Positions 5,727 to 46,908 of a stretch of DNA of 64,000 nucleotides are shown here, one piece after another (positions within the stretch are counted from its first letter, which is position 1; each line of letters starts with the position of its first letter). Below the pieces are notes generated by a model. It saw nothing but the letters and a program-made list of their open reading frames with translations, made no database searches and was not told the origin of the DNA. This stretch comes from Shigella phage MK-13, in sequence record MK509462. One strand, 5' to 3'. The position numbers and the translations under genes were made by a program.

Positions 5727-5894
5727 ATGTTTGTCGTCAATCTGTTCTGCTATATCTTCACGGCGTACTTCCTGGGAGCAGTAGGGTTCGAGACCTACAA
5801 TGACCTGAAGGAGGGCGAATACGCCGACTGGAAGGTCTATGCCAAGAAGTTCGCTCGGAAGTTCTGGTCCAACTTCGTTTACAAACTGCCATGA
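5727..5894 (+). CDS. hypothetical small hydrophobic protein (55 aa)
   Basis: ORF below 60 aa with GGAGA RBS, hydrophobic N-terminus. Confidence 0.3.
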   Translation: MFVVNLFCYIFTAYFLGAVGFETYNDLKEGEYADWKVYAKKFARKFWSNFVYKLP

Positions 5895-5931
5895 TCACCT
5901 AAATACCCCCATCATCCATGGGGGTATTTTC

Positions 5932-6661
5932 TATGAACGCACAGATCTATGACGCCCTTGAGCAGGGCAACGCATTTAACAATCCTCTCCCGTCCCTCAG
6001 CAGCACGTCTCAGGGTTTAATCACCAGCGGCAAGGCGACTACAGCTGCACTGGCAAACACCGGAAATACGCAAATCCAGGGCGCTCTGACGGCAGGCGGT
6101 CTAACCACGGCCAAGCTCAATGAAACGAACACGATGTTCACCTCTGCCAACACCAGCCTCACCACGCTGAACAACTATGGTGATCAGACTGTGAACGAAG
6201 CGTATTCCCGCATCGGGACTTCCGTGTCGTACAAATCTGGCCTGAAGTCAATCGAGCGCGAGCCGACCAACTGTGATCTGATCAATAATGCCTTCGGCGT
6301 CATACAGACTCTTGGGCGCCAGTGGATCGGCGCTATGGAGGGCGCTCTCAGCACTGTTACCGCCAAGATGGCCGAACTGGCTGAGTTAGTTGCGCAGGGT
6401 GTGAGCGCTGGCCTGGCAAAGATCCAGGCGCTGGCCGCCGAAGTTACCGGATATATCAACGATGCTATTGCTCAGGTGGCGCAAATCGGTCAGGATATCG
6501 CCAATGGTATTGCCTCAGAGTTGGCCCACATCCAAGACATGGTCAGCAAGTGTCTGAACTTCTCGTTCGCCAATGTACTGTCTGAGTGGGCTAAAGACCT
6601 GTGCGCTGGTGGTGTTATCAACAACATCGGTTCTGATAATCTGAAGAGCGCCCTGAAGTAA
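5932..6661 (+). CDS. hypothetical Ala/Thr/Gly-rich protein (243 aa)
   Basis: Long ORF; low-complexity T/A/G-rich N half, helical C half. Confidence 0.5.
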
Positions 6662-7312
6662 TCAGCGCTCCCGCGCCGGAAGAACTCCCACTGGTTCGAT
6701 ACCGTCCAACAGTAGGGAGTTCACCCCGACGTTGCTCAGCCTGATCCAGATCGTCCCCTCTGGCTTCACTTCGAAGATGTTCATCTCATTCCCAACAGCA
6801 TCGTTGTTGACAAACACACCCTGAGTTGCGATTCGTACTGGCTTGTCTGAGTCATTCATGATCTTGAACGTCACGATTATATCCGATGTTTCACTCAGTC
6901 GCCCAACCATGTGTTGCTTCAGTTTGGCGTAGAATGATGGATTAAAAGTGATGATGATGCTGTTGTTCTGAGAGTAATAAATACTTGCTGATAGGTATGG
7001 AATCTTCCCTTCATCGCCACGACGCAGGAGGGGAATCGTGGTCTTCCAGTATGGCTTGAGGGTGCTCGTGTTCTCCTCGAAGCAACCCAAAGGCACGAGC
7101 TTCTGGAAGGTCTGGAACTCTTGCACGATGATGTCCAGCATACCCTTGTTACAAGTAGGAACACTGGCCGACAACGTCACGGGCACGGTGCGTACTTCTG
7201 GGTTCCAGAGTTCGGAAACAGAAATTATTGGCGTGACAAAGATGCGACAGCTCGTAAGCAAGAGCATCGCGCATGCCAACAACAATCTACTGATCCCGCG
7301 CATCAGGGTCAC
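6662..7312 (-). CDS. putative lipoprotein
   Basis: N-terminus MTLMRGISRLLLACAMLLLTSC has signal-peptide shape with lipobox-like L-T-S-C; GTG start with GGAGA RBS (ATG alternative at 7303). Confidence 0.45.
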   Translation of the reverse strand: MTLMRGISRLLLACAMLLLTSCRIFVTPIISVSELWNPEVRTVPVTLSASVPTCNKGMLDIIVQEFQTFQKLVPLGCFEENTSTLKPYWKTTIPLLRRGDEGKIPYLSASIYYSQNNSIIITFNPSFYAKLKQHMVGRLSETSDIIVTFKIMNDSDKPVRIATQGVFVNNDAVGNEMNIFEVKPEGTIWIRLSNVGVNSLLLDGIEPVGVLPARER

Positions 7313-7341
7313 AAAATATCTCCACAGCAAAAGGTGCTATT

Positions 7342-7842
7342 ATGTCCGACGTACAATTCAAGAACGAAAACCCTAATTTCGCGGCGTCCGATAAGTGGCG
7401 TCTGACTATCGGAGACCTTGTACTCCTAACCCGTAACATCCACGACTTCAGTATACCAGGAGTGTACTCTGAAGGCATCGATGGTCCGTCTCCTGGCGAC
7501 GTACTGGTTTCTATCCCTTCAGAACGTTTAACCTATGATCCCGTCGTATTTACTTTCGTTATAGACGAGGACTGGAAATCATGGTTACAGATCCACCAAT
7601 GGATCACCAGCAACGTCGGCAAGGATTTGGCTGTCTCCAAGGACATTACCATTGAATTACTGGATAACCTCAACCGACCGATTGGCCTCACTCTCGTGCT
7701 GGAGGAAGCCCGTCCGACTGCTCTGGACAACGTACTGGTGGATGTGGACGCGGCTGTACCTCAGCTGGTGACGACAGTGACGTTCAAGTTCCAGCAGCTG
7801 GTCCCACTATCTGGTGGGAAGGTGATTGATTCTAATCCATGA
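7342..7842 (+). CDS. hypothetical protein (166 aa), weak resemblance to tail-tube/gp19-like fold
   Basis: Some sequence pattern similarity to T4 gp19 family by eye; not decisive. Confidence 0.4.
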   Translation: MSDVQFKNENPNFAASDKWRLTIGDLVLLTRNIHDFSIPGVYSEGIDGPSPGDVLVSIPSERLTYDPVVFTFVIDEDWKSWLQIHQWITSNVGKDLAVSKDITIELLDNLNRPIGLTLVLEEARPTALDNVLVDVDAAVPQLVTTVTFKFQQLVPLSGGKVIDSNP

Positions 7843-7884
7843 AATACGGTATAATTCTATGACATTGACAAGCTGGGATATTTT

Positions 7885-8337
7885 ATGAAAGAACAACTAC
7901 AGACAATGGCAACCGAGGACATCATGAACGAACTGGAGCCGCTGATTACAGTGGACCCAGAAGACATGAACCTTGACCAGATCTCACTGAAAATCGGGCG
8001 CTCTTGGATGGCCGTACAACGGCATTATCTGCGTGAGGGGCGTTATCTTGAATTCCTCAACGGGCGCTTCCGCCAGATCGATCTCTATCTGCGCCGCTAC
8101 TACGCAGGGGAGTTACCCCCGAACATCTACGCAGAGCGCCCCCTGAAGGTTCGCCCCCTGAAGTCTGACCTGGACACATGGGTCAAAGCCGACGATGACT
8201 ATGTAGAACTGTCTGTTCTGTTACAAGAACAAAAAGCAAAAGTCAAGTTCATCGAGACTTGTTTGGATCGCCTGAACAAGCTGGGATACGAAGTGAAGAA
8301 TGCCATCGATTGGCGAAAATATATGGATGGTTCCTGA
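7885..8337 (+). CDS. uvsY: recombination mediator UvsY-like
   Basis: Size and C-terminal block TCLDRLNKLGYEVKNAIDWRKY resemble T4 UvsY; adjacent to uvsW. Confidence 0.6.
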   Translation: MKEQLQTMATEDIMNELEPLITVDPEDMNLDQISLKIGRSWMAVQRHYLREGRYLEFLNGRFRQIDLYLRRYYAGELPPNIYAERPLKVRPLKSDLDTWVKADDDYVELSVLLQEQKAKVKFIETCLDRLNKLGYEVKNAIDWRKYMDGS

Positions 8338-9083
8338 TGGCATCTCTCCAAGCCCTGCGCAAGCTGAACGACTTCGAAAATCGTCATTACACATTCCAGC
8401 AGTACGAACTTCCTCATAAGGAACTGGAGTGTGTGACGACGGAGAACGGTCGTCATTATGTGTCACCAACTGGTGTCAAGCTGACGTCTGTAACGACGAT
8501 GCTGGGGCGTACTGGTGATCATGAATGGCTTGAGGCTTGGAGGGAGAAGCTGGGTGCAGAGGCCGCCGACCTTGAGACCATGCGTTGCGCTGACCGAGGG
8601 GAGAAGCTGCACCTCGCATGTGAACTGTATTTGAAGAACCGCCCAATGAAAGAAGTGTTGGAAGCGGCTGGCGAATACATGTTCATGTTCAAGCAGCTGT
8701 TCCCCTATCTGAACAAGATGACAAAGATCTATGCTCAGGAGATCCCGTTATATAGCGAGGTGCTTGGTCTCGCAGGTCGAGTGGACCTTATCGGGGTTTA
8801 TGAGGGTAAGCCTGCTATCATCGACTTCAAGACATCGAACACCATGAAGACGCGGGGAATGATCGAGGACTACAGTATCCAGCTGTGCTTGTACTCTGTT
8901 ATGTTCCAGCAGATGTTCGGTGTCAAGATCACCCGCCTCATCAATGTGATTGCCAACGAGTCATCGTTGACGCCAACCATCATAGAGTTCAACCGCGATG
9001 ACATACTGACGAAGATGTTTGAGCGTGTTCGTCTGTACCATCGCATGGATAAAGAACAGAACGGAGTCTGGCCGGATCGCTAA
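8337..9083 (+). CDS. PD-(D/E)XK superfamily nuclease (YqaJ/Cas4-like exonuclease fold, no Fe-S cysteines)
   Basis: Motif GRVDLIG...IIDFKTS (D...D-x-K) typical of PD-(D/E)XK nucleases; start overlaps uvsY stop (ATGA). Confidence 0.5.
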   Translation: MASLQALRKLNDFENRHYTFQQYELPHKELECVTTENGRHYVSPTGVKLTSVTTMLGRTGDHEWLEAWREKLGAEAADLETMRCADRGEKLHLACELYLKNRPMKEVLEAAGEYMFMFKQLFPYLNKMTKIYAQEIPLYSEVLGLAGRVDLIGVYEGKPAIIDFKTSNTMKTRGMIEDYSIQLCLYSVMFQQMFGVKITRLINVIANESSLTPTIIEFNRDDILTKMFERVRLYHRMDKEQNGVWPDR

Positions 9084-9111
9084 ATACCCCATATATCTTG
9101 GGAGATTTTGT

Positions 9112-10620
9112 ATGGCAGACATTCAGATTGTTAAGGTTAACGAAGTCCGCATGCGTTGCATCGCAGATCTTTCTATCAGGGAAGAGCTGAATGACTACTT
9201 CAAATTCGAAGACCCGAACTTCGTTCCCAACCCCTTCTCTAAATGGGACGGGGTTGTTCGCTTGTTCACCAAGTCATCCGGTCTGATTGATATCGGCCTA
9301 CTGTTTGAGGTGTTCAAGTTCTGCAAGAACAACAAATACACCATTGAACTGGATCCGGCTCTGAAGTACATTCAGGACATCCCAGATCAAGAAATCCATG
9401 ACTTCATCGACAGTCTCCATCCAAAGATCCGCACCGAAAATCACGAATACATCGATGCTGAGACCCGCGACTATCAGTACGACACCATCGCCAAGGCTAT
9501 GCGTCAAACCAGATGCGTCTGTGAACTGGCTACGAGTGCTGGTAAGTCCTTTATTCTGTATGTCATGGCGCGGTACTACAGGCAGCGCAGAGAAGCTCTC
9601 GAAAGTCCTCTGAAGACGCTTATCGTGGTGCCGTCGATTCACCTGGTCACTCAGCTGTACGACAACTTTGAAGAGTACGCACACGGCAGCGATTGGAAGC
9701 CCGTTGCCAACACTCAGTTGATCTTTGAGGGCGCGACAAAGGAAATCAGCAAACCAATCGTCATCAGTACATGGCAGGGCATTCAAGACCAGCCGAAAGA
9801 ATGGTTCCACCAGTTCGGTGACATCGTGGTGGATGAAGTGCACACCTCCAAGTCTGAGAAACTGTCCTACATCCTCAACAACTGCATCTACGCCGACCAG
9901 CGCCTGGGGGTTACAGGTACGCTGTCGAACACCAAAGTTGCCGGGCTTCAGGTGGTGGCTCACTTCGGGGCGTACCATAAGATCATCACGGCTCGCGACC
10001 TTATCAATCTCGGGTACGCCACTGACATCAAAGTGAAGATGATTCAGCTGAAGCACACTCCGGCGGATGCTGTTGGTCTGGACGGGGATTATACCAAGGA
10101 AATAGAATACCTTATTACACACCAGTCCCGCAACGAACTGATCGCCAAGATGGCACTGAATCTGAAAGGGAACGTGGCCATCATGTTCGAGCGTATTGAC
10201 GCCCACATGATGGTTGTGTACGATATGCTGAGCGCAGTCAAGCCCAACGTGTTTGTCATCAACGGGGAAGTGAAGATCGAAGACCGCCGCCGCATACAGA
10301 AAGCGATGGAGGATGGAGAGGATATCACGTTGTTGGCTTCATACGGGACAATGCAACAGGGTGTGTCAATCAAGAAGCTACACCACCTTGTACTGGCGCA
10401 CCCGAGCAAGTCATATATCCGCGTCATACAGACATTGGGTCGTCTGATGCGTCAGCACTCCTCCAAGGACGTCGCGTGGATATGGGACTTAGTGGATGAT
10501 GTGTCGTACAACGCCAGCACGAACCACGCTATCAGGCACTCTCATGAGCGATACAAGTTCTACCTGACAGAGCGCCACCCTGTGGAGTTCATGAAGGTGG
10601 CGCTGGGTAATCACGACTGA
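9112..10620 (+). CDS. uvsW: UvsW SF2 DNA helicase
   Basis: Colinear similarity to T4 UvsW: N-terminal domain, Walker A ATSAGKS, DEVH box, VTGTLS, helicase C motifs. Confidence 0.9.
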   Translation: MADIQIVKVNEVRMRCIADLSIREELNDYFKFEDPNFVPNPFSKWDGVVRLFTKSSGLIDIGLLFEVFKFCKNNKYTIELDPALKYIQDIPDQEIHDFIDSLHPKIRTENHEYIDAETRDYQYDTIAKAMRQTRCVCELATSAGKSFILYVMARYYRQRREALESPLKTLIVVPSIHLVTQLYDNFEEYAHGSDWKPVANTQLIFEGATKEISKPIVISTWQGIQDQPKEWFHQFGDIVVDEVHTSKSEKLSYILNNCIYADQRLGVTGTLSNTKVAGLQVVAHFGAYHKIITARDLINLGYATDIKVKMIQLKHTPADAVGLDGDYTKEIEYLITHQSRNELIAKMALNLKGNVAIMFERIDAHMMVVYDMLSAVKPNVFVINGEVKIEDRRRIQKAMEDGEDITLLASYGTMQQGVSIKKLHHLVLAHPSKSYIRVIQTLGRLMRQHSSKDVAWIWDLVDDVSYNASTNHAIRHSHERYKFYLTERHPVEFMKVALGNHD

Positions 10621-10988
10621 TCTTGATTCACATAGGCGGGGGTGGCCTCGCCTTCATCAGATACTGCGCCGAACAATTTGTCCAGAGAAACCAGACATTG
10701 TGCGTTCAGGTGTTCACTGATAGTGTCCTTCAGCATTTGTTCGCTGCCCAATTTGAATGGCAGAACCTTCGCTTCGACGCCGTTTTCAAACGTCACCACA
10801 CCGACATACAGACCAACTTTCAGGCCTGCCATCAAACCCAGAGGGACAAATCGCGGCTCCGATGGTAAGTTCTTGTCTGACGCCAGCTGCGCCAGATAAA
10901 CTGGGGTGCCTGTGACAAATTGCCCTGCGGTGAGGATGGCGTCTGGCTTACTGCATCCGACCGCATATAATCCTACGAACTGTTTCAT
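10611..10988 (-). CDS. hypothetical protein (125 aa)
   Basis: Minus-strand ORF with GAGAG RBS, convergent with uvsW. Confidence 0.4.
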   Translation of the reverse strand: MKQFVGLYAVGCSKPDAILTAGQFVTGTPVYLAQLASDKNLPSEPRFVPLGLMAGLKVGLYVGVVTFENGVEAKVLPFKLGSEQMLKDTISEHLNAQCLVSLDKLFGAVSDEGEATPAYVNQDQS

Positions 10989-11328
10989 ATATTACTCTCG
11001 TGTGTTGGTTAACATGACATACATATTATTTCGCGTGCATGTTTAGACCAAATAAATTAATTTTGCTGTTGAATAAAAATTGCTTTCCTGTTGAACAAAT
11101 GGCGCGGTATTATACGAGTTGTGAGTGTTAACGAACAACGAGTATTTGTTTTATGAGCGAAGCGAATAGGATTAATAAAGGTTATTATCTTTAATAAAGT
11201 CCATAAATGCCGAAGGCATTTATTAATAACGCGTAGCGCAATTTGCCACTTGTTCTATAAGCACAACACAGCGATACTAGATTGCGTCAAACATGACTTG
11301 AACCCCACTATATTTTGAGGATACATAA

Positions 11329-11997
11329 ATGCAAGAGATCACTCTCTCCGAACGTACACTCCAGTTGCTGGCCAACTTTGAGACCATCAACCCATCTATC
11401 GTTCTGACACCGGGTAAGATGCTGCGCAGCATTAACGATTCGTCTACTGTTATCGCCGTGGCACAGATCGAAGAAGACTTCCCGTTTGAGTTCCCTATCC
11501 TGGACCTGACCAAACTTCTGGCCATCCAGCGCCTGCCTTCCTTCAAAGGCGGTAAAGCCGAATTCCATCAGGACTACATCCTGTTGAAAGGCGAAAGCTC
11601 TCAGCTGCAATTCTGGCGTTCTGCTAAAGAACTCACTGTTGTTCCGGCTGACACCATTGAACTGCCGTCTGTCGACTTTGAAGCGATCATCACTCCAGAG
11701 AAGATGAAAGAACTGACCCGCGCCTGTTCTACCCTCGGTCACAAGACTGTGCGCCTGGTTGCTCAGGGTGGCAAAACTCGTCTGGTTGCAACCACCACTA
11801 CCCTGGATAACTCCAACAACTACACCGTTGAGCTGGGTGAAACCGCGCTGCCGGACTTCGTCATGCCACTGGACGTTGCCAACCTGAAGATGATCGAAGG
11901 CAACTACACTCTGCGTGCCTGCGCTGAGCTGCAGATGGTGAACTTCCAATCATCCGACGCGACGATCAATTACTTCGTCGGCGCACAGATTGAGTAA
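11329..11997 (+). CDS. sliding clamp, gp45-like
   Basis: Length and sequence pattern match T4 gp45; precedes gp44/gp62 as in T4. Confidence 0.9.
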   Translation: MQEITLSERTLQLLANFETINPSIVLTPGKMLRSINDSSTVIAVAQIEEDFPFEFPILDLTKLLAIQRLPSFKGGKAEFHQDYILLKGESSQLQFWRSAKELTVVPADTIELPSVDFEAIITPEKMKELTRACSTLGHKTVRLVAQGGKTRLVATTTTLDNSNNYTVELGETALPDFVMPLDVANLKMIEGNYTLRACAELQMVNFQSSDATINYFVGAQIE

Positions 11998-20055: not shown

Positions 20056-20910
20056 ATGTTTCGTTTGAAATTGAACGACCAAGATGTGTTCTACAAACAC
20101 TTCACCTTCCCAGGTGGTGAGGAACATATCAAGATCCAAAAGTCTGGTATCCCTATCGGCCACGTCCAGAACGTGGCGATTGATGCTCACATCAAATCAT
20201 CAGCCGACTTCGTTGAGCTGGCACTGCTGGTTAACGCCGTGCGCGGCCTGGGTAACGTGGACCGTCTGACGACCTTCCATGCGTATATCCCTTACTTCCC
20301 GTATGCTCGCCAGGACCGCCATTGCGACTTCGGCGAGCCTCTGTCCGTGAAGTGGGCGGCTGAGTTCATCAATAGCATGAACTTTGACCGCGTGGCGATC
20401 AAAGACCCTCACAGCCATGTTGTGTCTTCTCTTATCAACAACGTCCATGTGGTCCCGCAAGATTACATCGTGCGGCAGTATCTGGGCTGGTTCATCCGTG
20501 GGAACAACGCTGTGTTGGTAGCCCCTGACGGCGGCGCGGCTAAGAAGACCGAAGCCCTCAGCCTGTCTCTGGATGGCGTTCCTGTTGTCTACGGACACAA
20601 GAACCGTGACGCCAAGACTGGTGAGATCATTGGGGTGAGTATTACAACCCCTGAACTGATCAAAGACCGTTATCTGGTGGTGGTCGATGATATCTGCGAC
20701 GGTGGGCGCACGTTCGTTGAGTTAGGCAAAGAGCTTCAGAAGCACAAGCCCAAACACATGACGCTCTTCGTTACCCATGGCATCTTCAGCAAAGGGCTTT
20801 CCGTGTTCGACGGGATCTACGATGCTGTGTATGCCGACACTGTCTGGTGGGAGAATATCACCGCCGACGGTCTTCCTTTCAAAACTGAAAATACAGGACG
20901 TGTAAAATGA
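20056..20910 (+). CDS. ribose-phosphate pyrophosphokinase (Prs)-like; candidate ADP-ribose pyrophosphokinase
   Basis: Prs signature YFPYARQDR and PRPP-binding loop VVVDDICDGGRT. Confidence 0.85.
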   Translation: MFRLKLNDQDVFYKHFTFPGGEEHIKIQKSGIPIGHVQNVAIDAHIKSSADFVELALLVNAVRGLGNVDRLTTFHAYIPYFPYARQDRHCDFGEPLSVKWAAEFINSMNFDRVAIKDPHSHVVSSLINNVHVVPQDYIVRQYLGWFIRGNNAVLVAPDGGAAKKTEALSLSLDGVPVVYGHKNRDAKTGEIIGVSITTPELIKDRYLVVVDDICDGGRTFVELGKELQKHKPKHMTLFVTHGIFSKGLSVFDGIYDAVYADTVWWENITADGLPFKTENTGRVK

Positions 20911-22571
20911 GCATGCGCCACTTAGACCCAATCCATGCAATCGACTTCTACAAATCAGGGCACATCTATCAGTTCCCTGAAGGCAGCGAGCTGGTGTTCT
21001 CCAACGGAACTCCGCGCTCCAACAAACTGTTCAACTCTCACCTGCCGAAGAACGGCGTGGTGGTCTGGGGCATCCAGGGTTTCATGACTTGGTTCCATGA
21101 ACTGTTTGACGAAGCATTCTTCCAGCGCCCGAAGGCCAAGGTGTTGAAGAAGTATGCCCGTCGCATGAACAAAGTCCTGGGTCCAGGCCGCGTCGGCACA
21201 GAGCATATTGAAGCCCTGCATGACCTCGGCTACCTGCCTATCGAAGTCCGCGCGCTGCCTGAAGGCACCATGTGCCCGTATGGCGTTCCGGTGTATGTGA
21301 TGTTCAACACCCTGCCGGAGTTCTACTGGCTGACCAACTATCTGGAGACTGTGTTCAGCTCTGAGATCTGGAAGCCGATGACGAACGCCACTATCGCTCT
21401 GCATTACAAGGCACTGATGGTGAAAGCTGCCCTCGCTACAGGCGTGTCACCGGACCATTGGTTCATCGACTACCAAGGCCACGACTTCTCCTTCCGTGGC
21501 ATGAGCGGGTGGCATGACGCGGCGTCTTCCGGTTCCGGTCATCTGGTGTTCTTCAAAGGCACCGATACCAACCCTGCCCTGGACTTCGTTGAAGAGTATT
21601 ATGGCGCAGACATCGACGAAGACTATGTCGTTGCTGGCTCCGTTGCGGCTACAGAACACGCCGTGATGTGTATGGGTACGAAGGATGGTGAATTCGAAAC
21701 CTTCCGCCGCCTGGTGCAGGACGTGTATCCTGATGGCATCGTCAGCATCGTGTCTGATGCGTGGGATTACTGGCAGGTCATCGACGACTATCTCCCTCGC
21801 CTGAAAGATATTATCATGGCGCGTAACGGTAAAGTCGTGATCCGCCCTGACTCGGGCGACCCAGTTCATATCGTCGGCGGCTACCGCATTGAGGGGTTCA
21901 AAGACCGCGCCACGCTGAACATCAGCGGCGTGTCTAGCAGCACTGAAGTCATTCACATCGAAGAGACGAACACCTATCACCTGATCACAGGCGAAGGCAC
22001 GATCAACTCTCTGATGGCAGACGACCGTAATATCATCAGCCGTTCTGAAGCAGTCGGCTCTATCCAGCGACTGTGGGAGATCTTTGGCGGTACTCAAACT
22101 GAAACTGGCCACTTCCTGTTGGACGAACACATCGGTCTGATCTACGGTGACTCCATCACCCTGGCGCGTGAAGACCAGATCTTTAGCCGTCTGGCTGGCC
22201 GGAACTTCGCTTCCATCAACGTGGTGTTCGGTATCGGTTCCTACACCTACCAGATGAACACCCGTGACAGTACTGGCACGGCGGTGAAAGCAACGGCTGG
22301 TAAGGTGAACGGTGAATTCCGTGAGATCTTCAAAGAGCCGAAGACCGACAAAGGCGGGACTAAAAAGTCTGCGCGTGGTTTCCTTAAAGTCATTAAAGAC
22401 TCTCAGGGTAAACTAGTGTTGGTTGACGGTATCACCTTTGATCAGGTGCAAGACGCCGACAACCAGCACCAGCTGGTGTATCGTGATGGCAAGTTCTTCA
22501 ACACTCAAACTCTGGAAGATGCGCGTGTCCGCGCCGCTCCTCTGGTAGCAGAACTGGCATCACAAATCTGA
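20907..22571 (+). CDS. nicotinamide phosphoribosyltransferase (Nampt/NadV)-like; candidate nicotinamide ADP-ribose transferase
   Basis: N-terminal DFYKSGHIYQFP matches Nampt DSYKVTHYKQYP block; length 554 aa; start overlaps Prs stop (ATGA). Confidence 0.85.
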   Translation: MSMRHLDPIHAIDFYKSGHIYQFPEGSELVFSNGTPRSNKLFNSHLPKNGVVVWGIQGFMTWFHELFDEAFFQRPKAKVLKKYARRMNKVLGPGRVGTEHIEALHDLGYLPIEVRALPEGTMCPYGVPVYVMFNTLPEFYWLTNYLETVFSSEIWKPMTNATIALHYKALMVKAALATGVSPDHWFIDYQGHDFSFRGMSGWHDAASSGSGHLVFFKGTDTNPALDFVEEYYGADIDEDYVVAGSVAATEHAVMCMGTKDGEFETFRRLVQDVYPDGIVSIVSDAWDYWQVIDDYLPRLKDIIMARNGKVVIRPDSGDPVHIVGGYRIEGFKDRATLNISGVSSSTEVIHIEETNTYHLITGEGTINSLMADDRNIISRSEAVGSIQRLWEIFGGTQTETGHFLLDEHIGLIYGDSITLAREDQIFSRLAGRNFASINVVFGIGSYTYQMNTRDSTGTAVKATAGKVNGEFREIFKEPKTDKGGTKKSARGFLKVIKDSQGKLVLVDGITFDQVQDADNQHQLVYRDGKFFNTQTLEDARVRAAPLVAELASQI

Positions 22572-25739: not shown

Positions 25740-25749
25740 ACTTTTAGGG

Positions 25750-26071: not shown

Positions 26072-26083
26072 TTCTATAAACTC

Positions 26084-34011: not shown

Positions 34012-34539
34012 ATGATAGAAATTTATTCTGACGGGGGTTCTAACCCGAAGACCAACCAGGCCGCAGGATGGGCATTTGTCATCAGGCCAATATCGGGTAT
34101 GCAATGGAAGGTGTTCTTCGGTCACCTGCCTCCCCCGTCCACCAACAACATCGCCGAGTTGTTGGGTGTGACCAACGCATTGAAGCTGCTGTGGGCATTC
34201 TCAGGAAAGGGTGAGCGCAGAATACCAAAGGCAACAATTTGGTCTGACAGTCAATACACCATCAAGAGCGTCACCGAATGGCGAGCGAAGTGGGAGTATC
34301 AGGGTTTCCCAGACAAGAACGTTGAACTCATCAAAGATCTGTTCAGAATCTATGATCTCGTTTGTTCAATTTGTGAAGTTGAACTAAAATGGGTTAAGGG
34401 TCATGCGGGGCACGAAGGTAACGAACTTGCCGATGACTGGGCCACAGCAGCCAAAAACGACAGCAACTTCCTGATTGAGAATGACAAGATCTCAGTGAAG
34501 AAGGTTGTTGGATCTTTTGATGAATTTATCGGTATCTGA
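34012..34539 (+). CDS. rnhA: ribonuclease HI
   Basis: DGG...TNNIAEL...SDSQY...KWVKGHAGHEGNELADDWA matches RNase HI DEDD active-site pattern. Confidence 0.85.
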   Translation: MIEIYSDGGSNPKTNQAAGWAFVIRPISGMQWKVFFGHLPPPSTNNIAELLGVTNALKLLWAFSGKGERRIPKATIWSDSQYTIKSVTEWRAKWEYQGFPDKNVELIKDLFRIYDLVCSICEVELKWVKGHAGHEGNELADDWATAAKNDSNFLIENDKISVKKVVGSFDEFIGI

Positions 34540-41700: not shown

Positions 41701-43746
41701 ATGTCAAAGCCAAATTTCCTTCAGTTCATGCAGGAAAAGGATCAGTTGGACGAAGCGTTCAACTCCGCTCCGTATGAGCTGACCATGGGCAAGAAGAACG
41801 CAGGCGATGTGTTCTTCACCTTCATCGACGAAGATGAAAAGGAATACCGCATTCAGTTCTATACCCCTCAGGGGCTGGGCAAGAACGTTCGTCAGGTATT
41901 CATCGGCCAGAAGCGCGGCTCTGTCTATCCTGATGCCATCGCTCGCTTCAAGAACCCAATGCGCGTTATTGCTTCCATGATCGAAGCGACCAAGCAGTTC
42001 CTGGCGACCCCTCTTGGCAAGACTATCGATGGCTATGCTGTCAACTTCTCTAAGAAAGCGCTGGAACGCGGGATGACACTGATTCCTAAGATCATCCGCC
42101 AGTCCGGCCTGAAGCAGAAACTCAATGTCATGGACCTGACCTACGCGCCTGTCCCTGACCGTGGTTATGTGTGGCTGGTTCGTAAGGGTAAAGATCCGGC
42201 TCAGGTATTCGACGGTCCGAAGATGCAGGGCATCACTTGGGATGATCCAGACAAGGTTGGTGACGTTCCGGTTCAGAACAACACCCCTGATGTGGGGACT
42301 TCGTCAAACAACCCCGACTGGAACATTTCCGTCATGGCGAAATCCAACGGTATCTTCAGTTCTGTTGTGAAGGTAGTCGGTGCCAACGACGTGACTCTGA
42401 GTTCCAACGATCTGGCCATCATGGTCAAAGACGGCGCAATGGCGAAGATTGCTCGCACCCAAACCATCGCTCAGGTGACTGTGTTCAACAAAGAGTATGT
42501 TGGTCGTGGTGAAGTAGATCGCAAACTCATGGCGGCTTCTGACCGTCAGGGCATGGGTTGGGAACTGAAGTCTGGTGGTAAGATTGTGGCTTATGTTGAA
42601 TTTGGCGTTGGGGCTATACAGTCCAATCCCGACTATGAAGATAAAGGACAATGGAAATACGACAACCGCAATCAGCGCGGTAAACAACCTCAGATGGTGT
42701 ATTCTATCACAAAAGGTCGAAACACTTATTCGGCCATGCTATCTGCTCATTCTTCTGAACCAGGCACGTATGTACTTCATGGCAGCGATGGCAAATCATT
42801 TCGTGGGCCATCTGCCGATCTGATTATTGGGCAAGCTCGTTTGCCGTCTCCCCCTATTGATATGTACAACCAGTTCACACGCGATTCCAAAGAATTCTGG
42901 GCACAGATCGACATCACCGAAGGCGTGAAAGTTCCCAGCAATGGTGAGGTCATCACCAAAACCAAATCCACCTTCACCATACGTTGGAACATGGGATTTC
43001 CTCCATCAGGGCCATACGCTGGGGCAGTGCTAGAAACAACGGTACTGCGGGTGCGTGAAAATGACTACGTGATAAGCAACATTGCGTCCACTAAAAACAA
43101 AACTCTGAATGATTTGAAGTCATATGACTACAGAGGAGATATTAACTCTTTGTTGAAAGAAGAGGGCGAGCGTTATTCTTTGGCCAACTCCCAATTGTCT
43201 ACACTGACTTCTATTTCCTATAACCCAAATAAACTGGGATATGACCTTGTTTCTGTAGGGAGTTACGGGGAAGTCAGGTTCAATGGTCAAGACATCGGCC
43301 TCCCTAGTAATCGGCAGGTTGTGATCAACGCCGTAATGAAGATGAACAATGAATACGAGAAGACTGGCGGTGGTAAGAAGACTGGTGTTGACCTGGCAAC
43401 ATACGCAGGCTCCATCCGCGACAACGCTCCAAAAGGCCGCGACCTGGATTGGCAGATCTATGCAAGCCGCGATGGCCAGACCCTGAACGTGGACTGGGAT
43501 ATCACCTTCCGCCGCAACACAACTGAAGGTGCATATCGCGAGTTCAAAGCTCAGATTGACCGCGCCAACCAGTACCTGCAGACTCTGTACCAGGATGCGA
43601 AGTCCAAGGGTTACAACCCGACTGAACCAAACCTGATGACTCTGGCTCGCGCCCAGCAGTCTGACCAGTGGGCGAAAGACGACGGGGAGAGCGCATACAG
43701 TGAGTATGAGCAGTCCCTGGGCGGCAACATGCAGATTAAAATCTGA
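41701..43746 (+). CDS. large hypothetical protein (681 aa) with capsid-targeting-like N-terminus
   Basis: N-terminus MSKPNFLQFMQE resembles T4 capsid targeting sequence MKTYQEFIAE; located just upstream of internal-head-protein genes. Confidence 0.55.
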   Translation: MSKPNFLQFMQEKDQLDEAFNSAPYELTMGKKNAGDVFFTFIDEDEKEYRIQFYTPQGLGKNVRQVFIGQKRGSVYPDAIARFKNPMRVIASMIEATKQFLATPLGKTIDGYAVNFSKKALERGMTLIPKIIRQSGLKQKLNVMDLTYAPVPDRGYVWLVRKGKDPAQVFDGPKMQGITWDDPDKVGDVPVQNNTPDVGTSSNNPDWNISVMAKSNGIFSSVVKVVGANDVTLSSNDLAIMVKDGAMAKIARTQTIAQVTVFNKEYVGRGEVDRKLMAASDRQGMGWELKSGGKIVAYVEFGVGAIQSNPDYEDKGQWKYDNRNQRGKQPQMVYSITKGRNTYSAMLSAHSSEPGTYVLHGSDGKSFRGPSADLIIGQARLPSPPIDMYNQFTRDSKEFWAQIDITEGVKVPSNGEVITKTKSTFTIRWNMGFPPSGPYAGAVLETTVLRVRENDYVISNIASTKNKTLNDLKSYDYRGDINSLLKEEGERYSLANSQLSTLTSISYNPNKLGYDLVSVGSYGEVRFNGQDIGLPSNRQVVINAVMKMNNEYEKTGGGKKTGVDLATYAGSIRDNAPKGRDLDWQIYASRDGQTLNVDWDITFRRNTTEGAYREFKAQIDRANQYLQTLYQDAKSKGYNPTEPNLMTLARAQQSDQWAKDDGESAYSEYEQSLGGNMQIKI

Positions 43747-43770
43747 TCATCTAAAGCCCCTTCGGGGGCT

Positions 43771-43778
43771 TATAAATA
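43771..43778 (+). promoter_or_regulatory. T4-type late promoter motif TATAAATA
   Basis: Exact TATAAATA 26 nt upstream of internal head protein gene start, after a terminator hairpin. Confidence 0.55.
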
Positions 43779-43803
43779 ACTGAAATCCCCGAGGAGATTC
43801 AAG

Positions 43804-44373
43804 ATGAAACCGTTCCTTCAATACTTTAAAGAACAAGCTGCTCAGCCTCAGACCCATGCTGGTGTCCAGGGCAAAAGCGTATCCATCACCAAGCAAGCTG
43901 ACGGCACTCAGTGGTGCTCCGGTGCTACCGTGACCCAGATCACTCCTGACAATCAGGCGGATGTCTACAACCTGGAGTTAACCAACGGCAACACCATCAA
44001 GGTGAAGCTGACCCCAGACCAGACTCACGGTATCTCCCAAGGTCAGGAAGTCGTTGCTGTCCATGACGGCTTCGAATTCTTCTTTGGCAAGTCTGCCGAC
44101 AAAGGCCAGGTGACCGAAGCCTACGCTCAGGAACTGGCGAACATGGACAAGATGATCGGTAAAGCACTGGGTGTTGGCAAGTCTCGCAAGAGTGGTCGCA
44201 CTGAGTTCGAATACTCTGGCATCCCTGGCATCGGCAAGGCGATCACCGTGAACTTCGGTGGTGAAGATGACCCGTATGTGATCGTCACCTGCAACGGCAA
44301 GGAGCAGGATATCAGCAAGGGTAAAAACCTGGCTGCTGACATTGCCAAGTTCCTCGGCGTTAAGCCTGTGTAG
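43804..44373 (+). CDS. internal head protein-like (capsid targeting sequence)
   Basis: N-terminus MKPFLQYFKE fits CTS and prohead-protease L/I-x-E cleavage pattern; late promoter upstream. Confidence 0.6.
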   Translation: MKPFLQYFKEQAAQPQTHAGVQGKSVSITKQADGTQWCSGATVTQITPDNQADVYNLELTNGNTIKVKLTPDQTHGISQGQEVVAVHDGFEFFFGKSADKGQVTEAYAQELANMDKMIGKALGVGKSRKSGRTEFEYSGIPGIGKAITVNFGGEDDPYVIVTCNGKEQDISKGKNLAADIAKFLGVKPV

Positions 44374-44381
44374 GGGGATGT

Positions 44382-44864
44382 ATGAAAGGGTTCCAGGACT
44401 TCCTAACGGAGGTCAAGCAAGTTGGTTGGCGTTTAGTCAAGACTGAATGGACTTGTTCCCTTGTGTACGACAGCAAAGGTCCGAGCTATTCAATCTATCA
44501 AGGCAAGACTCCTGGTACGTTCTACGGGCACAAGTCCCCTAGTGGTTCGACCATCAAAGGTGAGCCACAGGAATTGGCCGAGAAGCTGAAGCTGCCCCCT
44601 ATCCCAGACGATCTACTCAAAGCATTCCTGGAGGGGGTTAAGAATCTAAAGACCGAAGGCGTGGATCACCGGGCGCTGGGGAAGCGCGGCCAGTATGACA
44701 TCACCGATGTTGGCCGCCCAACCAAAGGCGAACTGATCGACTACTACAACCGCAACGGCGACAAGCGACAAGGGAAAGTGAAGTCTGTGAACGCACAAGA
44801 CGTCATGACCCTGACAGACACCGACACGGGTGAAACCGTCAAGATGACTCTGGTCAAGCCATAA
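44382..44864 (+). CDS. internal head protein-like (capsid targeting sequence)
   Basis: N-terminus MKGFQDFLTEV, near-identical pattern to T4 IP N-terminus MKTYQEFIAEA. Confidence 0.6.
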   Translation: MKGFQDFLTEVKQVGWRLVKTEWTCSLVYDSKGPSYSIYQGKTPGTFYGHKSPSGSTIKGEPQELAEKLKLPPIPDDLLKAFLEGVKNLKTEGVDHRALGKRGQYDITDVGRPTKGELIDYYNRNGDKRQGKVKSVNAQDVMTLTDTDTGETVKMTLVKP

Positions 44865-44867
44865 AAG

Positions 44868-44889
44868 AAACCCCGCTTTTGCGGGGTTT
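44868..44889. terminator. bidirectional terminator between convergent genes
   Basis: aaaccccgcttttgcggggttt flanked by A-run and T-run. Confidence 0.7.
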
Positions 44890-44891
44890 TG

Positions 44892-45497
44892 TTATTTCAC
44901 ATACATACTGACTTGTACTTTCTTACCTTTTTCGTTTTTGACGTCCATCAGTTTGGATGCACCATTCAGTTTCATGACGGTTCCGCGTTCTTTGCCGCCA
45001 TTCGGTAACTCGTATTCAATATCTTCCCCAGGAGATGGCATACCCGCATGAGGTCCCATAACCATGGCGATCTTATAACGAGCCAAGCCGGGGCGACCGC
45101 CTTTATACGCATACCAACCACCTTCGGTCATTTCTTTCCATTGCTTGTTACCGTCAATGGAGATAAAGGAATTGCCCATACCTGATTTGACATCCAACAA
45201 GTCAATATATTTGCCTGATTTGTTGTACTTGACAGCGGTGTCAGTATCAACCTTGTCAATCATCTGGGCACTGGCAAACTGCCCATCTTTCAATCCAGAT
45301 GCTGAGATGATGTCTTTAGCACCCGTCAGGATTATCTTGCGACCGTCAGGGGTTTCAAAGGTGGCTTTGTCGCCACTAACACTAACTCGCAAGAAAGTGC
45401 CGATATTGTCTTCGGTGGATTTGCCGATCTTGTCTGCCTTGATATGAACAGACATCGGCGGCACGGCTTCGGTCAGAAAGTCTTGAAAAGTTTTCAT
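44892..45497 (-). CDS. internal head protein-like (capsid targeting sequence)
   Basis: N-terminus MKTFQDFLTEA closely matches T4 IP CTS MKTYQEFIAEA. Confidence 0.6.
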   Translation of the reverse strand: MKTFQDFLTEAVPPMSVHIKADKIGKSTEDNIGTFLRVSVSGDKATFETPDGRKIILTGAKDIISASGLKDGQFASAQMIDKVDTDTAVKYNKSGKYIDLLDVKSGMGNSFISIDGNKQWKEMTEGGWYAYKGGRPGLARYKIAMVMGPHAGMPSPGEDIEYELPNGGKERGTVMKLNGASKLMDVKNEKGKKVQVSMYVK

Positions 45498-45586: not shown

Positions 45587-45940
45587 ATGGTTAACGCGAG
45601 TATTTTCATCAACCGTGGACTGCTTGCTATAGCCCACTCTCATGCCCTGCACTTCGTTACAACGTCCTACGCCAAGCACAAGGCGCTCGGGGAGTTCTAC
45701 GGGGAACTGGAGGACTTGCTGGACACGTTTACCGAAGCATACATCGGTGCGGGTGGCCAGTACGTTCCGTCGTTTGAGAACATCAAGCTCTATAACCCAG
45801 ACCCTATCTCCTATGTCAACAGCGTGGTGATAGACGTCGATGGCATCTACAGGCAGTGCGACTCCCACCTTCAGAACACGCTTGATGAAATCAAGACGCT
45901 GTGCTATCAGACGATCTACAAACTGAAGCAGCTGTCGTAA
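45587..45940 (+). CDS. hypothetical protein (117 aa)
   Basis: ORF with AGGAAA RBS. Confidence 0.45.
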   Translation: MVNASIFINRGLLAIAHSHALHFVTTSYAKHKALGEFYGELEDLLDTFTEAYIGAGGQYVPSFENIKLYNPDPISYVNSVVIDVDGIYRQCDSHLQNTLDEIKTLCYQTIYKLKQLS

Positions 45941-46002: not shown

Positions 46003-46614
46003 ATGAGCAAAATCTTTACCCCGACACATCGTGAAGGATGTGAGATCGCGGCCAACTACCTGCGCGGTCGCATGAACTGCGGCGCTGTCTTCATCGAGCC
46101 AAATTCGTTTGACAACAAAGAATCACCTGATGCCATCGGGTTTCGTTCAGGCGGGTGCTCTGTCCTGATGGAAGTGAAGGTGTCCCGCGCCGACTTTCTC
46201 ACTGACAAGAAGAAGCCCCATCGGATGGACCCCACAACAGGGATGGGTGCATACCGCTTTTATGTCTGCCCTCAGGATGTGATCAGGGTTGAAGACCTGC
46301 CACCAAAGTGGGGGTTGTTCTACTTCACACCCCGCAAGTCCCTGATGCCAGTTCATGTGCCAGACATGCAGTACTCTTCATTGTCATCACCAGAGCATTA
46401 TCAGAAGTATCTTGATGAACAGATCAAGAGAGGAAGAACCGTTACCCGGCATATGCGCAGCTACATGGATCTCCTGGACGGCTTCGCCCACTTTGAGCGC
46501 AACACTGCCGGGGAGCAGAATATCCTGTATGGGGCTTGGCGCCAACTGTGTATAGCTCAAAGTCGTGGTGTAGACTATACTGTGACCGAAGTGTTCCAGA
46601 GGCCAGCGATTTAA
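46003..46614 (+). CDS. hypothetical protein, possible PD-(D/E)XK-like nuclease fold
   Basis: DAIGFRSGGCSVLMEVKVSRADF gives a D...E-x-K arrangement; weak. Confidence 0.4.
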   Translation: MSKIFTPTHREGCEIAANYLRGRMNCGAVFIEPNSFDNKESPDAIGFRSGGCSVLMEVKVSRADFLTDKKKPHRMDPTTGMGAYRFYVCPQDVIRVEDLPPKWGLFYFTPRKSLMPVHVPDMQYSSLSSPEHYQKYLDEQIKRGRTVTRHMRSYMDLLDGFAHFERNTAGEQNILYGAWRQLCIAQSRGVDYTVTEVFQRPAI

Positions 46615-46623: not shown

Positions 46624-46908
46624 ATGTCATTAGAAGCATACAACAGAGAGTTTTCAGAAATCAACTATGGTCTAATGTTCGCCAGAGAAAAACGATTTAT
46701 CCAGGCAAGTGAATATTTGGAAAGACATGGGATGGTTTCTGAGTACAAAAATAAATTGAATATGAAAGCCGCTATGGCTTCTGTGGAACTTGGCGCTGAT
46801 TGTGCTGAAGCCCAATCGTATTCCCGTCAAACTGATTACGACCAGGACATGGTGGAAGAGTATAAATCTATCCTTTTCCGTACCGGGTGGATAAATGAAA
46901 TTTCTTGA
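46624..46908 (+). CDS. hypothetical protein (94 aa)
   Basis: ORF with AAGAGG RBS. Confidence 0.4.
   Translation: MSLEAYNREFSEINYGLMFAREKRFIQASEYLERHGMVSEYKNKLNMKAAMASVELGADCAEAQSYSRQTDYDQDMVEEYKSILFRTGWINEIS

Follow-up and report, generated by a model that had tools for sequence, protein, structure and literature searches.

Introduction

Among the proteins that replicate mitochondrial DNA, Twinkle and POLRMT are derived from phages. The mitochondrial exonuclease MGME1, whose gene is a human disease gene, acts through a single-strand-selective arch, requires a free end and does not cleave RNA (PMC6237815, PMC11040146). The roles of the arch and of residue W152 have been described, H180 coordinates the A-site metal, and the exchange D238N nearly abolishes activity (PMC6237815). 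In cooperation with strand displacement and 3'-exonuclease activity of the polymerase, MGME1 generates ligatable nicks (PMC6237815, PMC11040146), and the 2 to 3 ribonucleotides left by RNase H1 are then removed by flap nucleases, including MGME1 (PMC6963530). Passages of two reports also describe the enzyme as participating in the degradation of linear mtDNA (PMC11040146; PMC6584726).

Ackermannviridae and Kyanoviridae, as well as further large phages, carry exonucleases grouped as phrog_298, or "T4-like gene cluster 325." This is a very large family: at E ≤ 1e-30, its profile matches 1702 clusters at 50% identity. We found no paper that characterizes a phage member, neither literature dedicated to phage homologues of MGME1 nor experiments on them, but only database-style names and one passing mention, and the gene is undiscussed in the genome papers of phages Ag3 and CBA120. 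Here, we describe a phrog_298 member encoded between the recombination genes uvsY and uvsW of a Shigella phage and compare it with MGME1 and with other nucleases of the PD-(D/E)XK type.

Results

The nuclease gene overlaps uvsY. The window (the whole stretch of DNA analyzed here, 64,000 nucleotides of Shigella phage MK-13, record MK509462) represents a Shigella phage Ag3-like genome (Agtrevirus, Ackermannviridae). Its features are listed in Table 1. The nuclease gene is already known and annotated in RefSeq as "exonuclease" (Ag3 gp143). A preliminary description of this DNA had noted that its start overlaps the stop codon of uvsY, and this was confirmed: the TGA of uvsY (positions 8335-8337) and the ATG of the nuclease gene (8337-8339) share one base in the junction TGATG. 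This ATG was favored over an upstream TTG at position 8259, since homologues have lengths of 247 to 249 aa and all start at the same methionine. The names uvsY and uvsW given there to the flanking genes were also correct, as judged from Pfam domains and, for uvsY, from its PHROG match.

The GC content of the nuclease gene (0.50-0.52) equals that of its flanks, and a promoter and terminator scan revealed no terminator-like site in the gap between the nuclease gene and uvsW. From the gene context, the nuclease gene is probably cotranscribed and translationally coupled with uvsY. The total of promoter- and terminator-type sites within positions 6600 to 11400 was not above that of shuffled sequence. 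The top-scoring site of this interval, a candidate promoter with a weak consensus match, is suggestive by its position just upstream of uvsY and by nothing else, and we regard it as a lead only.

TABLE 1 Features of the nuclease locus and of related genes in the window
Feature	Positions	Strand	Remarks
Candidate sigma-70-type promoter	7826..7855	+	TTGATT, 18-nt spacer, TATAAT; 10/12 matches; in the 42-nt gp3-uvsY gap
uvsY, recombination mediator	7885..8337	+	PF11056, E 2.1e-11; phrog_231, 3.4e-44; stop overlaps nuclease start codon
MGME1-like PD-(D/E)XK exonuclease	8337..9083	+	248 aa plus stop; Ag3 gp143; phrog_298 member
N-terminal signature SVTT (S51-T54) and arch start WLEAW (W64-W68)	8487..8540	+	S51, T53 and W68 invariant; W68 = MGME1 W152
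Motif Ia, second arch helix, RGEKLHLACE	8595..8624	+	R87, G88, H92 and E96 invariant; H92 = MGME1 H180
Motif I glutamate E135	8739..8741	+	Invariant; = MGME1 E223
Motif II GRVDLIG, residues 147-153	8775..8795	+	D150 = MGME1 D238, metal ligand
Motif III IIDFKTS, residues 161-167	8817..8837	+	D163 and K165 = MGME1 D251 and K253
Motif IV QLCLY	8880..8894	+	RecB-type Q-x-x-x-Y; Q182 and Y186 invariant
uvsW helicase	9112..10620	+	UvsW_N, ResIII and Helicase_C domains; 28 nt downstream of nuclease ORF
RNase HI-type ribonuclease, not T4 Rnh/FEN type (context gene)	34099..34539	+	PF00075, 9.1e-21; Ag3 gp110; directly upstream of gp55-gp47-gp46
PD-(D/E)XK-fold protein, distantly MmcB-like	46003..46614	+	203 aa; Ag3 gp092; phrog_631, 2.1e-78; two genes upstream of gp61 primase
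94-aa ORF	46624..46908		Between the MmcB-like gene and gp61 primase

The protein is a nuclease of the MGME1 type. Profile matches of the ORF were far above chance level: with 31.9 bits (E 1.7e-7), it exceeded the gathering threshold of 22 for the Pfam family PDDEXK_1 (PF12705), and it matched phrog_298 "exonuclease" over residues 1-245 (2.9e-86). When a profile of the phrog_298-type family was searched against the PDB, MGME1 was the only strong match (E 2.7e-19, profile positions 32-224 of 225), and Cas4 (4ic1) scored 0.08. Reciprocally, the catalytic domain of human MGME1 matched phrog_298 with an E value of 1.7e-23, the next PHROG following at 1.8e-4. The AlphaFold model of the nuclease (pLDDT 93.6, pTM 0.89) was searched against the PDB with Foldseek, and the top nine matches were all MGME1 (E 1e-12, TMt 0.71-0.82); on the MGME1-ssDNA complex 5zyu_A, it superimposed with a TM of 0.77 and an rmsd of 1.9 Å over 204 columns. 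The next matches were RecE, the best structure other than MGME1 (1.9e-5, TM 0.45-0.50), and Cas4 (about 5e-5). These results identified the protein as an MGME1-type enzyme, small, stand-alone and belonging to the RecB-type PD-(D/E)XK nucleases, with human mitochondrial MGME1 as its closest characterized relative. With this specific assignment, the labels "PD-(D/E)XK nuclease" and "exonuclease," both vague, can be replaced.

Residues W152, H180, E223, D238, D251 and K253 of MGME1 mapped to W68, H92, E135, D150, D163 and K165 of the nuclease, all of which were invariant in an alignment of 35 diverse homologues, as were Q182 and Y186. All PD-(D/E)XK motifs were invariant: E135 (I), G147-D150 (II), D163-F-K165 (III) and Q182...Y186 (IV). 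The two-metal active site, formed by H92, E135, D150, D163 and K165 together with Q182 and Y186, is complete. The predicted structure contains the two long helices that form the arch over the active site in MGME1, with W68 and H92 carried by helices 63-72 and 74-99 of the AlphaFold model. The preliminary description had recognized a PD-(D/E)XK active site in GRVDLIG...IIDFKTS; the above-cutoff PDDEXK_1 match and the invariant catalytic residues bear this out, and both the nuclease fold and every catalytic residue were present.

The nuclease and the catalytic domain of MGME1 are homologous over the full length of that domain, with about 29% identity over 182 aligned residues. They share the fold including the two-helix arch, motifs Ia and I to IV with identical catalytic residues, a PSVT-like N-terminal motif, the arch tryptophan and a stand-alone architecture of about 220-250 aa. 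In contrast to MGME1, the product of a eukaryotic nuclear gene, the viral protein has neither a mitochondrial targeting peptide nor a disordered N-terminal region of ~100 aa, but carries a conserved C-terminal tail (residues 236-248) and, at its N terminus, a segment of ~25 aa specific to Ackermannviridae. It could be aligned only to MGME1 residues about 128-335, with no counterpart of residues 1-127. The phage protein is therefore a viral homologue, not an orthologue, of eukaryotic MGME1. As a separate observation, which touches on a viral origin of MGME1, MGME1 is far closer to phrog_298 than it is to other PHROGs or to other solved structures.

Other PD-(D/E)XK families do not fit. YqaJ, lambda exonuclease and Cas4, which had been put forward for comparison, were checked by profile search and found not to accommodate the protein. 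The Pfam YqaJ model did not match the ORF at E ≤ 1, and the lambda-exonuclease-like structure 3syy matched the nuclease model with an E value of 5.6e-3 and a TM of 0.32-0.40. RecE, lambda exonuclease and YqaJ are likewise PD-(D/E)XK enzymes and serve as phage recombination exonucleases, but they act as toroidal oligomers on duplex ends, whereas the nuclease model displays an MGME1-type single-strand arch (PMC6237815). Near the nuclease gene, neighbored by uvsY and uvsW, neither an annealase nor a cas gene was found. Membership in the YqaJ/lambda exonuclease and RecE families was ruled out by the missing profile match, the lack of an adjacent annealase and structure matches far weaker than those to MGME1.

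Cas4 (SSO0001 4ic1; TIGR00372; PF01930) shares with the nuclease the PDDEXK_1/RecB-like superfamily and the motif II-IV pattern (Foldseek E about 1e-4), but the Cas4 models stayed below their cutoffs (TIGR00372, 35 versus 65 bits; PF01930, 13.2 versus 22.7 bits), and the TM was 0.3-0.4. Unlike Cas4, the nuclease has no four-cysteine Fe-S cluster (N-terminal Cys plus C-terminal CX2CX5C) and no CRISPR context. Its cysteines are at positions 32, 84, 95 and 184 only, with none in the C-terminal 60 residues and hence no C-terminal CxxC...C, in agreement with the earlier remark that a Cas4-type cluster is missing. Membership in Cas4 was ruled out by the sub-cutoff scores, the absent cysteine cluster and a structure match far weaker than that to MGME1.

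The gene belongs to a conserved module. Homologues of the nuclease were detected by tblastn in 995 phage records. The protein is 100% identical to the "putative exonuclease" of Shigella phage Gloob. Its identity to the tblastn matches from the Limestonevirus, Kuttervirus and Taipeivirus phages sampled is 80-97%, and that to homologues from cyanomyoviruses is 30-38%. Ag3 shares the order gp3-uvsY-nuclease-uvsW-gp45-gp44-gp62-regA with a 47%-identical Vibrio phage. The core of this order, gp3-uvsY-nuclease-uvsW, was also found in one Kuttervirus, one Taipeivirus and one Limestonevirus, where uvsY and the nuclease gene overlap by one base or lie 2 nt apart. The preliminary description had called the gene "inserted" between uvsY and uvsW, which was wrong: gp3-uvsY-nuclease-uvsW is a conserved module across Ackermannviridae, of normal composition. 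A recent insertion or a mobile element was ruled out by the cross-genus synteny, the 47%-identical Vibrio phage and the flank-like GC content. The nuclease gene is an ordinary conserved replication/recombination gene.

Within phrog_298, the members from Ackermannviridae have short extensions at both termini and are encoded between uvsY and uvsW, whereas cyanophage members adjoin gp33. In cyanophage P-HM1, the order is phoH > nuclease > gp33 > gp59 ... gp32, with td also adjoining; the same slot of T4 reads rnh > dsbA > 33 > 59 > 32. Among marine and jumbo phages, distant homologues were present on phage-like contigs of 371 kb and 140 kb, with a DnaB helicase gene and a ligase-like gene nearby and an otherwise uninformative context. 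When 185,579 prokaryotic species genomes were scanned with a narrow alignment of the family, by means of two exact peptide patterns, 14 loci were obtained, all on MAG or SAG contigs; this pattern-limited scan is only suggestive of an absence of the family from prokaryotic isolates.

Discussion

We lean towards the view that the nuclease is an MGME1-type, end-dependent ssDNA exonuclease and that it trims the flaps and tails of intermediates in phage replication and recombination, a role assigned by analogy with MGME1. Flap and tail trimming is the most likely role because the gene is coupled to uvsY and located just upstream of uvsW, in a conserved replication/recombination block. Of the two roles offered in the preliminary description, recombination exonuclease or attack on host or competing DNA, the same context favors the former. 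If the phage enzyme follows the biochemistry of MGME1, only ssDNA with a free end would thread under the arch, and the enzyme should therefore be an end-dependent, single-strand-specific exonuclease, presumably dependent on Mg2+ or Mn2+. It would shorten 5' and possibly also 3' tails and flaps and would be unable to initiate on circles or on intact duplexes; the MGME1-type arch of the model likewise makes it unlikely that the enzyme attacks intact duplex DNA by itself. The gene context suggests that the substrates may be single-stranded flaps and tails arising from recombination-dependent replication and lagging-strand synthesis, and that the trimmed joints could then be extended, or the phage ligase could seal the nicks. 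Bidirectional action on ssDNA and a monomeric state mark MGME1-like nucleases; for the phage enzyme, the polarity, strand specificity and oligomeric state given here are extrapolations from a homologue of about 29% identity and should be taken as provisional.

Ag3 encodes RNase HI, ligase, gp46/47, DexA and a RuvC-like resolvase; a T4-type Rnh is not annotated in its genome, nor did tblastn yield a match to T4 Rnh. In Ag3-like phages, the nuclease would thus be the best candidate for trimming flaps once RNase HI has acted, in the manner of MGME1 in mitochondria. T4 RNase H (Rnh), of the FEN family, may do the same job, the removal of 5' flaps and primer remnants, but is unrelated to the nuclease in fold and family, and enzymes of the MGME1 type do not cut RNA (PMC11040146). 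The rnh gene is absent from P-SSM2 and P-SSM4, and many cyanomyoviruses that carry the nuclease gene have no ligase or RNase H of their own (PMC1079782); a self-contained pathway of primer removal is therefore not a general feature. If the nuclease is indeed a flap or tail trimmer, this would account for the completion of lagging strands and the tidying of recombination joints in phages that lack T4 Rnh, and would offer a simple bacterial-virus model for MGME1.

A further-reaching and rather doubtful proposal is that animal mitochondrial MGME1 has its viral sister group, and perhaps its origin, in phrog_298, and that FEN-less phages such as Ag3 use a mitochondria-like two-nuclease removal of primers and flaps, in which the nuclease would cooperate with RNase HI, with strand displacement and the 3'-exonuclease of a B-family polymerase, and with the phage ligase. 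A viral origin of MGME1, if true, would add a nuclease to the phage-derived proteins of mitochondrial replication. For the present, the gain is mainly one of clean-up: a specific, testable label (MGME1-type single-strand exonuclease) and the correction of the insertion idea.

The nuclease might instead serve nucleotide salvage, degrading host DNA once this has been nicked or unwound by other enzymes and thereby feeding phage DNA synthesis. [quoted passage not shown] Members of the family abound in marine phages, and the cyanophage gene adjoins phoH and td; the tight, family-wide coupling, however, is to uvsY and uvsW and not to genes of nucleotide metabolism. In ViI-like phages, a base derived from hmdU replaces thymine (PMC3184105), which could allow discrimination between self and nonself DNA, but the gene is also present in cyanophages with canonical bases, so base modification is not a general basis of selectivity. 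Since, moreover, intact duplex DNA offers no starting point to a single-strand exonuclease of the arch type, we consider salvage unlikely.

Less probable still is a strict non-orthologous displacement, by which the nuclease would simply replace T4 Rnh, a FEN-type 5'-3' exonuclease, and have no role in recombination. The lack of Rnh in Ag3, seen both in the annotation and by tblastn, would be in line with this, as would the placement of the P-HM1 gene in the T4 slot of rnh, upstream of 33-59-32, and the counts among phage records (Synechococcus, 377 with the nuclease versus 41 with Rnh; Escherichia, 62 versus 637). Yet Synechococcus phage S-B68 encodes a T4-type Rnh and the nuclease within 4 kb, the latter still beside gp33, and the PBECO4/UB jumbo group appears to carry both as well. 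In Ackermannviridae, the partners are the recombination genes uvsY and uvsW rather than primase, ligase or RNase HI, and the RNase HI gene of the window is about 25 kb from the nuclease gene. The idea that the nuclease replaces T4 RNase H is therefore only partly supported. Strict mutual exclusion with T4 Rnh fails on S-B68, which leaves only a lopsided distribution; by the same co-occurrence, gene content does not force a flap-nuclease role upon the enzyme.

Finally, a nuclease of conflict, directed against competing phages, plasmids or host defense DNA, or a Cas4-/lambda-exonuclease-like enzyme working with CRISPR adaptation or a single-strand annealing recombinase, is hinted at by weak matches, all below threshold, to Cas4 and DruK models (PADLOC, NCBIfam) and by Cas4, RecE and ACE1 structures among the distant Foldseek matches, but is very improbable for a conserved core gene whose position is fixed and lies outside variable islands, with annealase and cas genes absent nearby and only the 14 MAG/SAG contigs from the pattern-limited scan of prokaryotic species genomes; its Cas4-/lambda-exonuclease-like family membership is largely refuted by the sub-cutoff Cas4 scores, the absent Fe-S cysteine cluster and the missing YqaJ match.

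A second PD-(D/E)XK-fold protein near the primase gene

The preliminary description had also pointed to a weaker PD-(D/E)XK-like candidate next to the primase (Table 1, Ag3 gp092). The protein itself had no Pfam match at E ≤ 1, and 3 of its 30 homologues gave weak MmcB-like (PF06319) or Hjc matches. Its family profile found 3dnx as the best match in the PDB (6.2e-5). The same structure was the best Foldseek match (8.5e-4, TMt 0.64) of its AlphaFold model (pLDDT 91), followed at E 0.025 and weaker by restriction-endonuclease, NucS/EndoMS and Hjc folds along with unrelated proteins. Residues E32, P42-D43 and E57-V-K59 were invariant or nearly so among homologues. The candidate thus held up as a real, conserved ORF in which E32, D43 and E57-x-K59 of a PD-(D/E)XK fold are invariant, and its product is a genuine, distantly MmcB-like protein of this fold.

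The nuclease gene holds an old, conserved position beside uvsY

Between bases 7300 and 10700, the window matched Shigella phage Ag3 (Agtrevirus, Ackermannviridae) at 99.6% identity and the other listed Ackermannviridae records at 92 to 99%. Across the entire window, identity to Ag3 was 94 to 99%, with several gaps (blastn, E ≤ 1e-50). At this strict cutoff, no Ag3 alignment was obtained at about 20720-21585, 25744-27455, 38737-39718, 41256-43374, 44404-45575, 49087-50352, and 55036-56443; these stretches are likely indels or fast-evolving genes setting MK-13 apart from Ag3.

The nuclease ORF is phiSboM-AG3_gp143 in RefSeq, where it is annotated as an exonuclease, and its predicted product was 100% identical to a "putative exonuclease" of Shigella phage Gloob. 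The reading frame, its overlap with the uvsY stop, and the motifs GRVDLIG (residues 147 to 153) and IIDFKTS (residues 161 to 167) were all confirmed: the uvsY stop TGA (8335-8337) and the nuclease ATG (8337-8339) have one base in common, and UvsY and UvsW are indeed encoded upstream and downstream, respectively. Translation is unlikely to begin at the alternative TTG at 8259, since homologues of 247 to 249 aa share one start methionine.

The view that the gene was inserted between uvsY and uvsW did not hold. The order gp3, uvsY, nuclease, uvsW is present in Ag3 as well as in Limestonevirus JA15, Kuttervirus ECML-4, and Taipeivirus UPM2146, in which uvsY and the nuclease overlap by one base or lie 2 nt apart, and it is kept in Vibrio phage K441 although the nuclease there is only 47% identical. 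In both Ag3 and K441, the block extends via gp45, gp44, gp62, and regA. In GC content, the nuclease gene (0.50-0.52) does not differ from its neighbours. In T4, uvsY and uvsW are also neighbours, but they are convergently transcribed and separated by two small ORFs. Because the order is conserved, the GC content matches, and the T4 layout differs, the Ackermannviridae layout represents an old arrangement distinct from that of T4, as opposed to something recently gained. The gene is real but ordinary, part of the conserved core and annotated before this analysis. The sigma-70-like hexamer pair upstream of uvsY was a good match; such matches showed no excess over shuffled sequence in the region. 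An annotated stem-loop flanks the DUF7424 gene in Ag3.

Features of the window discussed in the text
Feature	Position	Strand	Remarks
DUF7424 protein	6662..7330	−	6.3e-59; between + strand ORF 5918..6661 and gp3
sigma-70-like hexamer pair	7826..7855		just upstream of uvsY
nuclease ORF	8337..9083	+	248 aa
C-terminal tail of nuclease	9042..9080		residues 236-248
RNase HI-type gene	34099..34539	+	PF00075, 9e-21; directly upstream of gp55, gp47, gp46
motif ORF	41701..43746	+	N-terminal motif
motif ORF	43804..44373	+	N-terminal motif
motif ORF	44382..44864	+	N-terminal motif
motif ORF	44892..45497	−	N-terminal motif
DUF5856 protein	45587..45940	+	8.8e-30; immediately upstream of second candidate
second candidate (Ag3 gp092)	46003..46614	+	two genes upstream of gp61 primase, 94-aa ORF between

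The nuclease belongs to an MGME1-like family

The nuclease scored above the Pfam cutoff for PDDEXK_1 and matched the PHROGs family phrog_298 ("exonuclease") at 2.9e-86. When the single sequence was compared with solved structures, the human mitochondrial exonuclease MGME1 ranked first (E = 0.003). A family profile of 35 diverse homologues matched MGME1 in the PDB at 2.7e-19 across nearly the whole profile, compared with 0.08 for Cas4 SSO0001. In the reverse direction, the human MGME1 catalytic domain, its sequence taken from the profile-versus-PDB alignment, matched phrog_298 over its full length at 1.7e-23 (next PHROG, 1.8e-4); in Pfam it matched only the generic PDDEXK_1 (1.1e-6). An AlphaFold model built on the alignment of the 35 homologues was confident (pLDDT 93.6, pTM 0.89). 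Its best nine PDB matches were all MGME1 chains (E about 1e-12, target TM 0.71-0.82), with an rmsd of 1.9 Å over 204 columns to the MGME1-ssDNA complex 5zyu_A; other structural matches were far weaker, starting with RecE (1.9e-5), then Cas4, Exo5, Dna2, AddAB, and AdnAB. By published residue numbers, MGME1 W152, H180, E223, D238, D251, and K253 align with phage W68, H92, E135, D150, D163, and K165. All six were invariant in 35/35 homologues, and the same held for motif IV residues Q182 and Y186 and for the SVTT motif, which bears out the PD-(D/E)XK active site read from the sequence in the preliminary description. Because of the reciprocal matches, the structural match, and the invariant catalytic residues, the nuclease is assigned as a phage member of the MGME1-like family. 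It is not an MGME1 orthologue, since it has no counterpart to the part of MGME1 that precedes residue ∼128.

The families proposed earlier for comparison, YqaJ, lambda exonuclease, and Cas4, do not fit. No YqaJ match was obtained in the Pfam search, Cas4 models stayed sub-threshold (PF01930, 13.2 versus 22.7 bits; TIGR00372, 35 versus 65 bits), and PADLOC gave only weak Cas4 and DruK similarity. As already described, there is no Cas4-type cysteine cluster; the four cysteines (residues 32, 84, 95, and 184) form none.

The C-terminal tail, RMDKEQNGVWPDR, is conserved in Ackermannviridae homologues and absent from marine homologues, and its region was less confidently predicted than the rest (last block mean pLDDT 76). 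A partner such as the clamp, gp32, UvsY, or UvsW could dock on this peptide.

Homologues occurred in 995 phage records, including Kuttervirus, Taipeivirus, Limestonevirus, Vibrio phages, and hundreds of cyanomyoviruses, and also in Rhizobium, Stenotrophomonas, and jumbo phages. At 90% identity, 2180 clusters matched (E ≤ 0.001); at 50% identity, 1702 matched the family (E ≤ 1e-30), nearly all of them stand-alone proteins of about 215-250 aa. BFVD holds many predicted structures of this fold, one already named after MGME1, and in JGI some homologues bear the name "genome maintenance exonuclease 1." When one genome from each prokaryotic species was scanned, in a pattern-limited search, only 14 family loci turned up; every one was on a MAG or SAG contig, and the 330-kb contig that also bears P0070 was among these. 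The family looks essentially viral. Literature searches found no study of a phage member.

Predicted activity and role in replication and recombination

The two-metal active site of MGME1 involves H180, D238, and D251, with E223 acting via water, and K253, and helices α2 and α3 form an arch passing single-stranded DNA only. The enzyme requires a free end, acts from either end, leaves RNA uncut, and stalls about four nucleotides from the duplex junction; ligatable nicks arise only jointly with polymerase strand displacement and 3'-exonuclease (PMC6237815, PMC11040146). From its homology to MGME1 and from the AlphaFold model, in which both arch helices (residues 63-72 and 74-99) recur and bear W68 and H92, the phage nuclease most likely acts in the MGME1 manner, as an end-dependent, single-strand-specific DNA exonuclease.

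Gene context points to replication and recombination. In Ag3, the nuclease is coupled to uvsY, with uvsW, gp45, gp44/62, and regA following. In cyanophage P-HM1, the order is phoH, nuclease, gp33, gp59 ... gp32, the nuclease holding the slot that rnh has in the T4 order rnh, dsbA, 33, 59, 32. Ag3 also encodes gp46/47, DexA, a RuvC-like resolvase, ligase, and an RNase HI-type enzyme; T4-type RNase H (Rnh, FEN-type) was found there neither by annotation nor by tblastn. Cyanophages P-SSM2 and P-SSM4 were reported without rnh (PMC1079782), and this "quasicore" gene is absent from some cyanophages (PMC2993671). Mitochondrial RNase H1 leaves behind a few ribonucleotides, whose removal falls to flap nucleases, MGME1 among them (PMC6963530, PMC11040146); an attractive parallel in the phage would run from RNase HI via the MGME1-like nuclease to ligase.

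Simple replacement of Rnh by the nuclease fails, as Synechococcus phage S-B68 carries both: a T4-type Rnh (5800..6645) and an MGME1-like gene (9336..10025; hmmsearch, 4e-53) still adjoining gp33. PBECO4/UB jumbo phages apparently have both as well. What remains of the replacement idea is a skewed distribution, with 377 nuclease versus 41 Rnh records in Synechococcus phages and 62 versus 637 in Escherichia phages. What the present analysis adds is an exact MGME1-type assignment, a correction of the "inserted" view, and a test of the hypothesized relation to Rnh that partly weakened it. With strict replacement failing, we adopted a broader role, in which intermediates of replication and recombination most likely have their single-stranded flaps and tails trimmed by the nuclease; in Ag3-like phages, this role likely includes removing flaps once RNase HI has acted. 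The S-B68 gene is annotated "exonuclease A ... DexA," which, from its family profile match and the T4-like gene-cluster number GC0325 shared with the P-HM1 exonuclease, appears to be a misnomer.

The main rival to flap and tail trimming is host-DNA scavenging. MGME1 contributes to the breakdown of linear mtDNA, and a pelagiphage gene called "genome maintenance exonuclease 1" is mentioned in one paper as putatively serving dNTP recycling (PMC12404659); however, the nuclease has a fixed partnership with uvsY and uvsW, and an arch-type enzyme would have no way to start on intact duplex. There is little support for a role in conflict, or for one like that of Cas4 or lambda exonuclease, given the YqaJ and Cas4 search results and structural matches far behind MGME1.

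A second PD-(D/E)XK-like protein and a group of ORFs sharing an N-terminal motif

The weaker PD-(D/E)XK-like candidate noticed near the primase proved sound. Although without a match of its own in Pfam, NCBIfam, or PADLOC, it matched phrog_631 at 2e-78, and H9, E32, E40, D43, E57, K59, and D64 were invariant in 30 homologues, giving an E...PD...ExK pattern. Its family profile retrieved PDB 3dnx (SPO1766) at 6.2e-5, with only the ExK-SRADF core aligned, and 3 of the 30 homologues had weak MmcB-like or Hjc Pfam matches. The AlphaFold model (pLDDT 91) was likewise nearest to 3dnx (8.5e-4, TMt 0.64), followed by weaker matches to restriction-endonuclease, NucS/EndoMS, and Hjc folds and to unrelated proteins. 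Judged from sequence and model, the candidate genuinely has the PD-(D/E)XK fold and is distantly MmcB-like. The adjacent DUF5856 gene is annotated in Ag3 as a "starvation-inducible transcriptional regulator."

Four adjacent ORFs share the N-terminal motif MK(x)F(L/Q)(Q/D)(F/Y)(L/M/K)xE (e.g., MKTFQDFLTEA and MKGFQDFLTEV). PHROGs returned only "unknown function" or no match for them, and parts of the stretch 41701..45497 are among the places where the window diverges from Ag3. T4 internal proteins carry the capsid-targeting sequence MKTYQEFIAE, cut after LxE by the prohead protease, which we take the shared motif to resemble. The four ORFs may encode internal proteins that are packaged and injected.
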